A stretch of DNA of 64,000 nucleotides from Escherichia coli (GTDB lineage Bacteria; Pseudomonadota; Gammaproteobacteria; Enterobacterales; Enterobacteriaceae): assembly GCF_051903065.1 (NCBI RefSeq), contig NZ_CP178438.1; one strand, written 5' to 3'. Made by a program: the position numbers and the translations under genes. The stretch's first letter is position 1; every line of letters begins with the position of its first letter. Shown here piece after piece: positions 17,205 to 50,907 of the stretch. The notes under the pieces were generated by a model that made no database searches, had not been told where the DNA came from, and saw only the letters and a program-made list of their open reading frames with translations.

Positions 17205-17233
17205 TTGACAGACAAGGTACCGCTAAGTAATAT
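17205..17233 (+). promoter_or_regulatory. sigma70 promoter of asnT (TTGACA-17bp-TAATAT, GC-rich discriminator)
   Basis: -35 TTGACA 17205-17210, -10 TAATAT 17228-17233, then GCGCCCC; the same architecture precedes asnW, asnU and asnV. Confidence 0.65.
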
Positions 17234-17251
17234 GCGCCCCGTTCACACGAT

Positions 17252-17327
17252 TCCTCTGTAGTTCAGTCGGTAGAACGGCGGACTGTTAATCCGTATGTCA
17301 CTGGTTCGAGTCCAGTCAGAGGAGCCA
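17252..17327 (+). tRNA. asnT: tRNA-Asn (GUU)
   Basis: TCCTCTGTAGTTCAGTCGGTAGAACGGCGGACTGTTAATCCGTATGTCACTGGTTCGAGTCCAGTCAGAGGAGCCA. Confidence 0.95.
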
Positions 17328-17413
17328 AATTCTAAAAATTCGCTTCTTAGCGCAATGTCACTGACCTTAATTGAGCATTGTTTTTCAACGGATAGCGGGT
17401 TTTGACATCTTAA

Positions 17414-17637: not shown

Positions 17638-25620
<7,983 letters not shown>

Positions 25621-25881: not shown

Positions 25882-26934
25882 TCATATTCTCGCCAAAACA
25901 CTTTTTAATGCCTTTGCGAATTCATCCAGACTTATATTGTCAATTTTTTGCCCAACGACGACTGACTCCGAAACATCGGCCATTGCGGGCCATCGCGTTT
26001 TGTAATCAGCATAAATTGCAACAACGGGGGTATTATAGGCACTTGCCATATGTAATATTGAGGTGTCAGGAGTTATTGCGATATAAGCATCTTTTATGAT
26101 TGCTGCTGAACGTTTAATCGAGGGTGATAAGGATAAACGGTAGACATTATTATAACAATCCACTAATACCCTGGCTTTATCTTCCCCTTTTGGTCCATGA
26201 ACGATCACTATTGGTATATCTGTTTCACTTTGAATTTTTTCTATTAGATTTTCTGCAATCGATAGTGAAAATGTACGATCCTGCGAGCTACCTTCTAAAT
26301 TAAGCGCAATGTAAGATCCTAACGATCGCATTTCCTCGCGCACCTCATCGAGTACATCCTCACTTAGTGGCAATTCATATATTGGCCTGACTGCCGGAAA
26401 ACCCGCCTCACGCATCATAAATGCCCATGTCATGGGTACGGGAGCCCGGAGATTCTGATCCATCCGGGACGCGTTCTTACACACAGGGGAATAGCACTTC
26501 ATGGTTAAACCAACAACCTGAAAATTCGTTTTTGCTTTCAACTGACTGATAAATAACATCGTTTTCAGGTTCTTTTTACGCATCGCCTCTATACAAAGAT
26601 CCGGAGTACCGTATTGCTGTGTTATGTTCTTCGCTAAATCTTTTATTTCTTTTAATGTTGCGTGATCCTGCATAGTCATTGTGACTAATGTTAATTTAGT
26701 CTGTTCAAGTTTGAGCGCATTAAAGACTTCTAAATTAATTGTCGACGTAACAATTAATAGATGCTTAATTTTATGCAATTCAAGCGCCCGAATAACAGGA
26801 AAGATGGCCATAGCATCGCCAATCTGATCGGGAATATGGATGACAACAAAGTCTGTTTTTTCAATATTGAAATTATAAGCTTTATAATCGTAGTAACTAA
26901 ATGCAATACGTCTCAACAATGATACTAAAAACAT
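25882..26934 (-). CDS. yeeL: GT9-family (ADP-heptose heptosyltransferase-like) glycosyltransferase YeeL, apparently intact
   Basis: 350 aa from ATG 26934 (MFLVSLLRR...). C-terminal motif ITPDTSILHMASAYNTPVVAIYADYKTRWPA resembles the GT9 signature (D-S/T-G..H-L/M-A..G.P.V.L/I-F/Y). Low GC. Confidence 0.7.
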   Translation of the reverse strand: MFLVSLLRRIAFSYYDYKAYNFNIEKTDFVVIHIPDQIGDAMAIFPVIRALELHKIKHLLIVTSTINLEVFNALKLEQTKLTLVTMTMQDHATLKEIKDLAKNITQQYGTPDLCIEAMRKKNLKTMLFISQLKAKTNFQVVGLTMKCYSPVCKNASRMDQNLRAPVPMTWAFMMREAGFPAVRPIYELPLSEDVLDEVREEMRSLGSYIALNLEGSSQDRTFSLSIAENLIEKIQSETDIPIVIVHGPKGEDKARVLVDCYNNVYRLSLSPSIKRSAAIIKDAYIAITPDTSILHMASAYNTPVVAIYADYKTRWPAMADVSESVVVGQKIDNISLDEFAKALKSVLARI

Positions 26935-31180: not shown

Positions 31181-31627
31181 TTATCTTTTAAAGAAATCTG
31201 TCTTTATGGCAGATTTCTTTAATCTCATATAATCCTTATAAAAAATATAATGTTCAACTCGTCATATTGCTTATAAAAATTCCCCCAGAGAAATAATATT
31301 TATTAAAATTCCAGGTCTTCTTTTTCTGATTACAGAAGGCAAGTGGTAATTACGTATAGTTTCCCGATAAAGACGCGACAGCAACATCCCGCATAAGGCA
31401 TTGTTCTCTTTATCTTTGTACGGTACTTCATGGAACAGAGATTTTGACCTTGCGAATCGTGATGTCTGTTGGGGAGGGCAATTTGCTCACTGAAGCGTGA
31501 GGCTCGATTAAGCGCACGAAACACAGATATCAAAAAACCCGGTCGCTTTCTACAAGGTAACCGGGTAAAAATAATTTTTATTTTTTAACTGCTCTGAGAC
31601 TCATAAAGATGCCTCAAAACTAAAATT

Positions 31628-31703
31628 TGGCTCCTCTGACTGGACTCGAACCAGTGACATACGGATTAACAGTCCGCCGTTCTACCGACTGAACTACAGA
31701 GGA
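31628..31703 (-). tRNA. asnW: tRNA-Asn (GUU)
   Basis: Reverse complement is identical to asnT. Upstream on the minus strand: TTGACA (rc of 31745-31750) and TAATAT (rc of 31722-31727). Confidence 0.95.
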
Positions 31704-31803
31704 ATCGTGAGAACGAGGCGAATATTAGCGATGCCCACCCACAATGTCAAAGCCTGTTTTTTAAATTTGAAATCGTTTGCTGAAATAATCTGCATTTTGT
31801 CGT

Positions 31804-33435: not shown

Positions 33436-33451
33436 GTGCCTCAACAGCGAT

Positions 33452-33527
33452 TCCTCTGTAGTTCAGTCGGTAGAACGGCGGACTGTTAATCCGTATGTCA
33501 CTGGTTCGAGTCCAGTCAGAGGAGCCA
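33452..33527 (+). tRNA. asnU: tRNA-Asn (GUU)
   Basis: Identical 76-nt sequence to asnT. Confidence 0.95.
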
Positions 33528-33536
33528 AATTTCTGA

Positions 33537-33564
33537 AAAGCCCGCTTTTATAGCGGGCTTTTTG
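33537..33564. terminator. Bidirectional terminator between asnU and cbl
   Basis: AAAGCCCGC-TTTTAT-AGCGGGCTTTTT. Confidence 0.65.
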
Positions 33565-34515
33565 CTATATCTGATAATCAATTTCCTCTTCACTGTTTTC
33601 CATCACCTGCCGCTTGATATCCTCAACTGAAAGTCCTGCATTACAAAGTTCCAGAAAGCGCCAGACATAGTTACGCTGAAGTTGTCCTCGCTTCAGTCCC
33701 AACCAGACAGTATTAGCATCAAAAAGATGCCGCGTATCCAGGCGGATTAAATTCTTTTCCTCTTGTTCACCGCTGGATTGTTCGGCAACTATTCCGATCC
33801 CAAGCCCAAGAGCAACATAGGTTTTAATGACATCAGAATCCTGCGCACTTAATACAATATCTGCCAGCAAACCTTTGCGGGCAAATGCGTCATCAATACG
33901 TGAGCGCCCCGTAATCCCCTGTCGGTAAGTGATTAACGGCCACTTCGCTATTGATTCCAGCGTCAATGGTGTAATTTGCGTCAAGGGATGATCGAGTGGA
34001 ACAAGCAAACTATGGTGCCAACGAAACCACGGGAAGGCGACGAGCTGCGGGTCATTACTCAAACGCTCGCTGGCGATACCAATATCAGCTTCACCATTAT
34101 GCAACAACGTCGCAATTTCCTGTGGCGTCCCCTGGATTAGCTCGAGCCGAACCTCCGGGAAAAGTTCGCGAAAAGCTTTAATGACCTCTGGCAAGCTATA
34201 ACGTGCCTGAGTATGCGTCGTTGCAATAGTGAGAACGCCAGACGTATCGTTGGTAAACAGGTCTGCAAGCCGACGAACATTACTGGCTTCATTGAGAATA
34301 CGTTCTGCAATGACCAGTAATGCTTTGCCCGGTTCAGTCATGCCCAGCAGTCGCTTACCTCGTCGAACAAATATTTCGATGCCAAGTTCATCCTCCAGTT
34401 CCCGAATATGACGGCTGACGCCTGACTGTGAGGTAAAAAGCATATTCGCAACCTCTGTCAGGTTGTAATCCTGACGTGCAGCCTCGCGGATTATCTTTAG
34501 TTGTTGGAAATTCAC
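33565..34515 (-). CDS. cbl: LysR-family regulator Cbl (sulfonate-sulfur utilisation)
   Basis: 316 aa; N-terminal HTH (MNFQQLKIIREAARQ...); CysB-like; synteny with nac. Confidence 0.85.
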   Translation of the reverse strand: MNFQQLKIIREAARQDYNLTEVANMLFTSQSGVSRHIRELEDELGIEIFVRRGKRLLGMTEPGKALLVIAERILNEASNVRRLADLFTNDTSGVLTIATTHTQARYSLPEVIKAFRELFPEVRLELIQGTPQEIATLLHNGEADIGIASERLSNDPQLVAFPWFRWHHSLLVPLDHPLTQITPLTLESIAKWPLITYRQGITGRSRIDDAFARKGLLADIVLSAQDSDVIKTYVALGLGIGIVAEQSSGEQEEKNLIRLDTRHLFDANTVWLGLKRGQLQRNYVWRFLELCNAGLSVEDIKRQVMENSEEEIDYQI

Positions 34516-35739: not shown

Positions 35740-35860
35740 TTACCCAATAAGATTGAAAGCTCACCACTTTGTTGAAATTGACAGCAAACAAACAAAAAAA
35801 TGCATTTCACCCTTTGACATCACCATGCACTGCCATTAATATGCGCCCCGTTCACACGAT

Positions 35861-35936
35861 TCCTCTGTAGTTCAGTCGGTAGAACGGCGGACTGTTAATC
35901 CGTATGTCACTGGTTCGAGTCCAGTCAGAGGAGCCA
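35861..35936 (+). tRNA. asnV: tRNA-Asn (GUU)
   Basis: Identical 76-nt sequence; preceded by TTGACA (35814-35819), 17 bp, TAATAT (35837-35842). Confidence 0.95.
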
Positions 35937-35941
35937 AATTC

Positions 35942-35970
35942 AAAAAAGCCTGCTTTCTAGCAGGCTTTTT
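35942..35970. terminator. Bidirectional terminator between asnV and ldtA
   Basis: AAAAAAGCCTGC-TTTCTA-GCAGGCTTTTT. Confidence 0.65.
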
Positions 35971-35991
35971 GCTTTCTAATTACCAACGCTC

Positions 35992-39498: not shown

Positions 39499-39858
39499 TT
39501 ACGAAAGAAGATGGCATTGTGGAATAGCCAGACTTCCTCGTGTTAACGTCCGACAAAATGCGTCATTGACAGCGGTTTCTCTGGAATGACAGATTTCATT
39601 CAGATAATGGATTAATGCTACAGCCCCACCAGCCGGACCAGTCAGTAAACGGGCATTGTGTTCTGCAATCAAAATTACCGTCGTTCCCTCAGAATGAGCG
39701 AGCCATTCTGGTACGGATATCTCGCTTTCAGCTGCTATCAATAGCTGCACTGAATAATCGCTATACGCATCTGATAATGATTGCACAGACCCACCGTTAA
39801 GAGGCTGGAAATCTTGCTGCCAGTCCTCACGGATAAAACCGCAGCCTCTACAGTGCAT
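39499..39858 (-). pseudogene. Orphan ORF immediately upstream of cobU; possible remnant of a lost cbi/cob gene (identity unverified)
   Basis: 119-aa ORF with no recognisable start context. It sits where Salmonella carries cbiP directly upstream of cobU. Confidence 0.3.
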
Positions 39859-40133
39859 TGTTGGTCAGTGCCTGCGAAGCAGACATTATCGCGCTGGTGC
39901 TTAATGCGGACGCACCGTGGTCACCTTTTTCGCCTGGCTTTATCTCGTCAATGAATCGTCCGATCATTGGAGTAGTCACCAAAGCAGATTTAGCCAGCAT
40001 GGAAGAAATATCTTTGGTGAAAGTTTGGTTACGGGAAGCTGGATCGCACAACGTGTTAGTAACCAGTGCGGTTAATAACAATAGAGTTGCAGAACTTTTT
40101 GCCTTGCTTCATACAGAAGATGTCTGTCGCTAA
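39858..40133 (+). pseudogene. C-terminal fragment of a EutP/PduV-family small GTPase (gene remnant)
   Basis: 91-aa ORF lacking the N-terminal P-loop but containing [11 protein letters not shown] (G4-like TKxD motif) in the arrangement seen in EutP/PduV proteins; no RBS. Confidence 0.4.
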
Positions 40134-49506: not shown

Positions 49507-50331
49507 TTACTCCAGCGGCATTACCAGCGGATCGGGATACTGGTATTCAAACCCCAGTTCATTACAAATCCGACTGCCATCAATAATCTTACCTTTGCCG
49601 CTGTCCAGACTATTTCTGAACTGCGGAGGTTCCAGCCCCAGTAAACGGGCCATCTGCGGATAGAAAACATTACGCGCAGGGTGAGCTGGCGCACATATAT
49701 TATAGATGTGTCCGCCTTTAGGTGCCTGTAACAACAGAGTGATAGCGCCAATAACATCTTCTAAATGGACTAAATTAACACCATGTTCACCATCAGGCGC
49801 AGTTTTTCCGGCAAAGAAGCGTCCGGGATGACGTCCCGGTCCGACCAGCCCCGCAAGACGCAGAATATCGACCGAAGTACCGGGTAAATTGTGCAGCCAG
49901 TCTTCGAGTTCTTCTAATACTCGTCCACTGTTGGTCACCGGATTACGCGGGGTGGTTTCTTTCACCGTGCCTTGCGCGTCGCCATAGACAGACGTTGAGC
50001 TGGTAAAAATAATGCGGGGAATACGATGGGCCAGCGCGCTATCCACTAACTCTTGTACCGCTTGTAAATAGAACTCATCGCCGGGGCCGCTACGACGTGC
50101 CGGAAGCGTAATGACCAGGGCGTCGGCATCCATCAGGGCATCCAGATCGTCAGAATCGCAAACTAACTCAGGCTCCATGCGAAGCAGATAGCTATCAATG
50201 CCACTCATTCGGGCCGCTTCGACACCATCTTGTGTGGTTTTACTCCCGGTGACTTGCCAGCCTCGCGCTGAAAGTGACATCGCCAGCGGCATGCCTAACC
50301 ACCCTAACCCGACAATTGCGACCTTTTTCAT
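49507..50331 (-). CDS. yeeZ: NAD-dependent epimerase/dehydratase-like protein YeeZ
   Basis: 274 aa; Rossmann N-terminus MKKVAIVGLGWLG. Confidence 0.8.
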   Translation of the reverse strand: MKKVAIVGLGWLGMPLAMSLSARGWQVTGSKTTQDGVEAARMSGIDSYLLRMEPELVCDSDDLDALMDADALVITLPARRSGPGDEFYLQAVQELVDSALAHRIPRIIFTSSTSVYGDAQGTVKETTPRNPVTNSGRVLEELEDWLHNLPGTSVDILRLAGLVGPGRHPGRFFAGKTAPDGEHGVNLVHLEDVIGAITLLLQAPKGGHIYNICAPAHPARNVFYPQMARLLGLEPPQFRNSLDSGKGKIIDGSRICNELGFEYQYPDPLVMPLE

Positions 50332-50435
50332 CCGTTATCTCCTGATACACCTTAGATCTATAAGGCTACGCTAGCGTATCAAAACTGACAATTCATTCTA
50401 TGAATGAAATCGAAACGGTTAGCAAATATACCATT

Positions 50436-50535
50436 GCCTGATGCGCTCCGCTTATCAGTCCTACAAAAACTTCAATATATTGAATTTACGCAACATTTGT
50501 AGACCAGATAAGGCATTCACGCCGCATCCGGCAGG
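50436..50535. repeat. BIME (two inverted REP units) between yeeZ and hisL
   Basis: GCCTGATGCGCTCCGCTTATCAGTCCTAC ... GTAGACCAGATAAGGCATTCACGCCGCATCCGGCAGG. Confidence 0.6.
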
Positions 50536-50757
50536 AACAAAGCCCACTTTAGTTACAGAACACAATGTTCTTGAGGGTTTTAAAGACATATTTTCACGAT
50601 TACTTCTCTAACGTAGTCACTCCAGGCCCCCACCTTTCCCCGCTCATTCATTAAACAAATCCATTGCCATAAAATATATAAAAAAGCCCTTGCTTTCTAA
50701 CGTGAAAGTGGTTTAGGTTAAAAGACATCAGTTGAATAAACATTCACAGAGACTTTT

Positions 50758-50808
50758 ATGACACGCGTTCAATTTAAACACCACCATCATCACCATCATC
50801 CTGACTAG
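50758..50808 (+). CDS. hisL: his operon leader peptide HisL (MTRVQFKHHHHHHHPD)
   Basis: 16 codons with seven consecutive His codons. Confidence 0.95.
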   Translation: MTRVQFKHHHHHHHPD

Positions 50809-50870
50809 TCTTTCAGGCGATGTGTGCTGGAAGACATTCAGATCTTCCAGTGGTGCATGAACGCATGAGA

Positions 50871-50907
50871 AAGCCCCCGGAAGATCACCTTCCGGGGGCT
50901 TTTTTAT
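50871..50907 (+). terminator. his attenuator terminator
   Basis: AAGCCCCCGGAAG-ATCAC-CTTCCGGGGGCTT followed by TTTTTATT, directly upstream of hisG. Confidence 0.85.

Follow-up and report, generated by a model that had tools for sequence, protein, structure and literature searches.

BIME-1 elements (RIP/RIB) consist of a y REP and a z REP around a long, well-conserved linker that frequently includes an IHF site (Ton-Hoang et al. 2012, PMC3333891). At the chromosomal site considered here, the spacer between yeeZ and hisL, Iguchi et al. (2011, PLoS One 6:e23250, PMC3158064) describe O157 Sakai as lacking yoeB and yefM, and assign REP sequences in the Sakai spacer to a REP-containing indel. In its account of this spacer, that report gives neither a comparison with other genera nor the plasmid affinity of the toxin-antitoxin (TA) core. 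The yeeZ-hisL polymorphism is already published, and it is a common, ordinary variant.

We analysed this spacer in a 64-kb stretch of Escherichia coli DNA, hereafter the window, which is 99.97% identical to E. coli ECNB21-M121 (NZ_CP083585.1) apart from one IS903B difference. The spacer occupies 426 bp (50332-50757), in line with the approximately 425 bp originally predicted, and is 100% identical to that of ECNB21-M121. In K-12 the corresponding spacer measures 867 bp and includes yoeB and yefM, as the original prediction had stated. When the two were aligned, the left 77 bp (100% identity) and the right 132 bp (99.2%) were common to both, whereas the DNA between these flanks was 658 bp in K-12 and 217 bp in the window (50409-50625). 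The K-12 piece comprises yoeB-yefM with its promoter and a further 86 bp or so. The 217-bp and 658-bp pieces were no more alike than shuffled controls, and because of this the window is not simply K-12 minus the module. The window and K-12 carry alternative cassettes; they are not a chromosome with an insert and one without.

The ends of the variable piece were refined by comparison with additional sequences. The right junction moves a few bases to the left once other Escherichia are compared, and these alignments put the true junction in the interval from about 50610 to 50626. On the left, the difference between alleles begins at most about 10 bp from the left edge of an older Escherichia-specific insertion. 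At the right end of the K-12 TA cassette there is a perfect 23-bp palindrome, GCTAAGAGGAC-A-GTCCTCTTAGC (positions 1915-1937 of the extracted K-12 locus, L001), of which the right arm alone is common to the BIME version (window about 50611-50625). The appearance of the palindrome suggests an inverted duplication that arose at the junction.

The original prediction held that no yefM-yoeB pair lies between yeeZ and hisL, and this was borne out by each of the searches. Using K-12 YefM and YoeB as tblastn queries against the entire 64 kb gave a best E value of 0.65 and nothing meaningful inside the spacer, and the K-12 alignment likewise placed no YefM or YoeB match within 50332-50757. The spacer contains no ORF pair, and the ORFs that overlap it are all 56 aa or shorter. 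In K-12, an operator with paired TGTACA cores is present upstream of yefM (L001 1801-1818); a search of the window spacer for the pattern TGTACA-N6-TGTACA, tolerating up to 2 mismatches, found no match. The window spacer thus lacks both the adjacent ORFs and the operator of a yefM-yoeB type II toxin-antitoxin system. A decayed remnant was also considered and rejected, since tblastn, blastn with a word size of 7, and local and global alignments with shuffles recovered no trace of yefM-yoeB in the spacer. Compared with the K-12 module, which sits at the same chromosomal site in 78% of complete E. coli genomes, the window has neither ORFs, operator nor remnants, and at yeeZ-hisL this strain appears, from its sequence, simply to be without YefM-YoeB.

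The features of the spacer and its boundary genes are collected in Table 1. Parts of the left flank are conserved as blocks in other genera, and the yeeZ promoter presumably lies in this flank. In the his promoter region, we take the hexamers TTGCTT and TAGGTT to be the his promoter. In an Rfam search with E values up to 1, the His leader was the sole match to pass the threshold; REP-derived matches below it (naRNA4 and ES036) fell on the BIME, and the idea of a hidden RNA gene in the spacer was rejected on this result. A promoter and terminator scan of the spacer returned no terminators and two weak promoter-like matches in the BIME linker, at chance level.

Table 1. Features of the yeeZ-hisL region in the window (coordinates in the 64-kb stretch).
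Feature	Position	Strand	Basis or remark
yeeZ, SDR-family oxidoreductase, left boundary gene	49507..50331	-	ORF call; annotated yeeZ in near-identical ECNB21-M121
Left flank common to both alleles, 77 bp	50332..50408	.	100% identity to K-12
Allele-specific segment, 217 bp; K-12 has the 658-bp yoeB-yefM cassette in its place	50409..50625	.	Alignment and blastn
Short z-type REP (palindromic unit), slightly decayed	50436..50464	+	Aligned with other genomic BIMEs
Long BIME linker, 34 bp	50465..50498	.	Core CAATATATTGAATTT at 50473-50487
y-type REP	50499..50533	-	Aligned with REPs of other BIMEs
Flanking motif GGAACAAAGCCCA, also beside other BIME copies	50534..50546	.	Aligns with ATGAACAACGCGCA
Unique non-repeated DNA of the BIME allele	50547..50625	.	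Single copy; no Rfam family match
Escherichia-specific DNA common to both alleles, absent in other genera	50626..50669	.	Alignment and flank mapping in 75 outgroup loci
his promoter region, kept across genera	50670..50757	+	Alignment; A/T-rich tract upstream, TTGCTT 50690-50695, TAGGTT 50714-50719
hisL leader peptide (MTRVQFKHHHHHHHPD)	50758..50808	+	Right boundary of spacer
His leader attenuator RNA	50784..50907	+	Rfam RF00514, 131.6 bits, E = 1.7e-23

A 29-codon ORF at 50565-50654 on the plus strand, beginning MFLRVLKTYFHD, is uninterrupted in each of the five Escherichia BIME-type sequences compared. Counted by eye, about 5 synonymous and 12 non-synonymous changes separate these sequences, and the substitutions look neutral. 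Given this pattern, the lack of a Shine-Dalgarno sequence and the broken frame in the TA version, a small protein was rejected, and the ORF is probably not a gene.

The gap contains one BIME, made of two inverted REPs around a 34-bp linker, as had been predicted, and it accounts for about 110 of the 217 allele-specific bp. The z-type REP is predicted to form a hairpin of -4.3 kcal/mol (z = -2.3), and the y-type REP has 3 substitutions relative to what we take to be the y consensus. The 15-nt linker core CAATATATTGAATTT is invariant in five of five aligned BIME copies. Its minus strand reads ATTCAATATATTG, which resembles an IHF site and has a single mismatch to WATCAANNNNTTR, presumably the IHF consensus, making this a putative IHF site. 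Beyond the y-type REP, the motif GGAACAAAGCCCA aligns with ATGAACAACGCGCA, which adjoins the BIMEs at fdhE-yiiF and uvrB-yvcK.

The whole 103-bp element aligns end to end with the BIMEs at fdhE-yiiF, sseB-pepB and uvrB-yvcK. In a search of 28 Gb, full-length E. coli BIMEs elsewhere matched it at 83-87% identity (E values of 1e-19 to 1e-24), also in genomes that have no BIME copy at yeeZ-hisL, and at least 38-40 BIME places were found per E. coli genome. By these alignment scores the similarity is far beyond chance. The element resembles BIME-1 in its inverted y and z REPs with tails inward, its 34-bp linker with an invariant core and IHF-like site, its non-tandem occurrence as a single copy at this locus and its membership in a high-copy repeat family; no further REP and no tandem array were found in the spacer. 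It differs from BIME-1 in lying between the 5' ends of yeeZ (minus strand) and hisL (plus strand) rather than 3' of a transcription unit, a placement unusual for the family. It also departs from typical BIME-1 elements in that both REPs carry substitutions that weaken their hairpins. For the BIME in the window, the most likely reading is a passive repeat in slow decay, at a place where insertions are harmless, possibly retaining a putative IHF site.

The frequency of the two versions was determined in 5,426 complete E. coli genomes, of which 5,416 contain the shared flanks. A window-type (BIME) spacer at full length was found in about 1,192 of the 5,426, including O157:H7, and the K-12 TA cassette in 4,218, at about one chromosomal place each. 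These shares correspond to about 22% BIME and 78% TA, and the two versions nearly exclude each other in E. coli. A blastn search sensitive to about 70% identity detected yoeB-yefM coding DNA in 4,218 genomes as well, and the same search found 0 copies on the plasmids of the 5,426 genomes. Because the two classes together account for nearly all of the 5,416 flank-bearing genomes, a relocated copy of yefM-yoeB in BIME-type strains is unlikely, as judged by a DNA-level search of complete genomes at about 70% identity.

The copy in the window is itself a rarer sub-variant of the BIME version. Across the whole spacer, O157:H7 genomes are 96.7% identical to the window. When the query was narrowed to 50536-50679, which holds the unique DNA at 50547-50625, it proved to be single copy, with a full-length match in 1,193 genomes only; 33 of these were at least 99% identical to the window, and O157:H7 was 93.8% identical there.

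Two individual E. coli genomes showed spacers of a different appearance. In strain HH97 (NZ_CP116409.1; L084 1276-1924), a 649-bp unannotated spacer is 74.7% identical to K-12 over 604 bp and 86% identical to the window over 194 bp. It was considered as a third version with a decayed TA module and rejected, as it reads like the two versions blended, which is probably an artefact of building a consensus from a mixed sample. In strain CUPF12 (L003 1330-2442), which has a TA-type spacer, an IS421 element (IS4 family) lies between yefM and hisL, a third kind of insertion in this region.

A YeeZ scan yielded 80 loci, 75 of them from outside Escherichia, including Citrobacter, Salmonella, Enterobacter, Klebsiella and Kluyvera. 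The yeeZ-hisL spacer was 155-188 bp in all 75 of these Enterobacteriaceae loci and contained neither cassette; the left flank there abuts the his promoter region. Comparison of these sequences indicates that the 155-188 bp outgroup spacer is the true empty state. The window spacer equals neither this outgroup spacer nor K-12 minus its cassette, so the original description of the locus as an empty-site configuration holds for the missing module but not for the site, where 217 unrelated bp are present. Both E. coli versions share 44-54 bp of Escherichia-specific DNA, from 50626 to about 50669-50679.

Within Escherichia, the BIME version with the same junctions was found in E. coli E69, E. albertii, Escherichia sp. 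E1V33 and Escherichia sp. MOD1-EC7003. Identity to the window over the 217 bp is 87% in E. albertii, 95% in E1V33 and 92% in MOD1-EC7003, and the REPs have decayed independently in each of these Escherichia BIME versions. Among the Escherichia sampled, with one genome for each species other than E. coli, the TA version was confined to E. coli and E. whittamii; no locus came up under the names E. fergusonii, E. marmotae or E. ruysiae. The E. whittamii cassette is 96.7% identical to that of K-12, and its non-coding 150 bp are 92% identical, compared with 93.2% for yeeZ. The TA version is therefore old as well, since the cassette is about as diverged from the K-12 one as the flanking genes are.

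The TA cassette has relatives on plasmids. Positions 5-572 of its 658 bp are 84-86% identical to yefM-yoeB of Salmonella IncFII, Citrobacter and E. marmotae plasmids, with homology that begins at the yoeB stop codon and stops some 65-80 bp upstream of yefM. Because homology is confined to this core and the flanks beyond it are unrelated, we infer that the yefM-yoeB module is a compact import of plasmid type.

Taken as a history of the locus, these comparisons make it probable that a short spacer gave rise to the BIME version, that the TA module then replaced part of it, and that the versions were exchanged afterwards. The ancestral enterobacterial spacer is about 160-190 bp long, and the roughly 260 bp of extra DNA in Escherichia, made up of a single BIME-1-type element and unique sequence, would have been gained by an Escherichia ancestor. 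Illegitimate recombination would then have brought in a plasmid-type yefM-yoeB module at the cost of about 200 bp of this extra DNA. Both versions would have persisted, passing from lineage to lineage by homologous recombination along with the his and O-antigen region next to them. The BIME version is, on this order, probably the older of the two in the genus. A replacement of up to 130 kb that includes the his operon is mentioned for the O157:H7 lineage (PMC3158064, citing Leopold 2009). In our sample the TA version is present in O55:H7 and the BIME version in O157:H7, which fits movement of the versions with O-antigen exchange. Two observations run counter to the BIME-then-TA order: the TA version is itself old, to judge from E. 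whittamii, and the left edges of the allele difference and of the older insertion coincide within about 10 bp, which would not be expected from a simple history in two steps.

The opposite order would have the ancestor acquire yefM-yoeB together with the shared 44-54 bp, with the module later replaced by the 217 bp containing the BIME, so that the window would represent a derived loss allele. Decay and loss of chromosomal TA modules are well known, the TA version is the majority version in E. coli (78%) and is old, to judge from the 92% identity of non-coding DNA in E. whittamii, and on the right of the variable piece both versions have the same Escherichia-specific DNA. We nevertheless regard this order as unlikely: E. 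albertii and two other Escherichia carry the BIME version with identical junctions, with divergence that tracks species distance, and the 217 bp contain no trace of yefM or yoeB. Unlike the TA core with its clear plasmid relatives, some 80-90 bp of these 217 bp are single-copy DNA that has no known donor. It is still less probable, and by a good deal, that the spacer is a recurrent and perhaps site-directed insertion point between divergent promoters, which the cassettes entered independently, possibly helped by RAYT/TnpA-REP enzymes or REP-targeting elements. Such a hotspot would account for the position of the left allele junction within about 10 bp of the older insertion edge, for the IS421 in the same spacer of CUPF12 and for the 23-bp perfect palindrome that ends the K-12 version with shared DNA as its right arm; REPs are moreover documented IS targets and TnpA-REP substrates (PMC3333891). 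The 44-54 bp of shared Escherichia-specific DNA on the right would not be expected from independent insertions into the ancestral site, however, and the junctions show no REP remnant, target duplication or recombinase gene, the nearest REP being 27 bp from the left junction. That the module was merely dropped from the assembly of the window has a vanishingly small chance of being true. Public data do contain what appears to be an artefactual blended spacer, in HH97, but the window spacer is 100% identical to that of ECNB21-M121, and about 1,192 independent complete genomes and 4 other Escherichia representatives share the arrangement; these population data already refute an assembly artefact.

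A broader proposal can be made, although it is tentative and we would not expect all of it to hold. The two unrelated cassettes, the BIME and the plasmid-derived yefM-yoeB, may have persisted as a polymorphism across Escherichia since before the split of E. coli, E. whittamii and E. albertii, kept by linkage to an O-antigen region under diversifying selection, after having entered at a preferred insertion point between divergent promoters. For work on YoeB, the practical consequence is that yefM-yoeB, often treated as a standard chromosomal TA system of E. coli, is missing in about a fifth of complete genomes, and conclusions drawn in K-12 do not transfer to BIME-type strains, including O157:H7. 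The locus also provides a worked example in which a "missing" gene pair is one of two alternative insertions and the variant probably travels with O-antigen exchange.

Several further features of the window were recorded outside the spacer. The single IS difference from ECNB21-M121 lies at 26195-26203, where 9 bp correspond to the duplicated target of a 1,057-bp IS903B that splits a family-9 glycosyltransferase gene in that strain and is absent from the window. Four tRNA-Asn genes with repeated flanks are present (17228-17338, 31621-31727, 33444-33566 and 35837-35973). Genes for tRNA-Asn are classic island integration sites, and none of these four appears to be occupied by a large island. Between cobU and tmaR (yeeX), at 39499-40133, the ECNB21-M121 annotation lists only an EutP/PduV fragment and a hypothetical gene; the K-12 CP4-44 prophage (flu, cbtA-cbeA) presumably lies near this position, and if so the window strain is without the island. 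At 17638-25620 on the plus strand there is a giant Ig-like-domain gene (yeeJ-like), annotated in ECNB21-M121 as a pseudogene with an internal stop, which contains internal repeats of roughly 609 bp at 86% identity (20673-22063).
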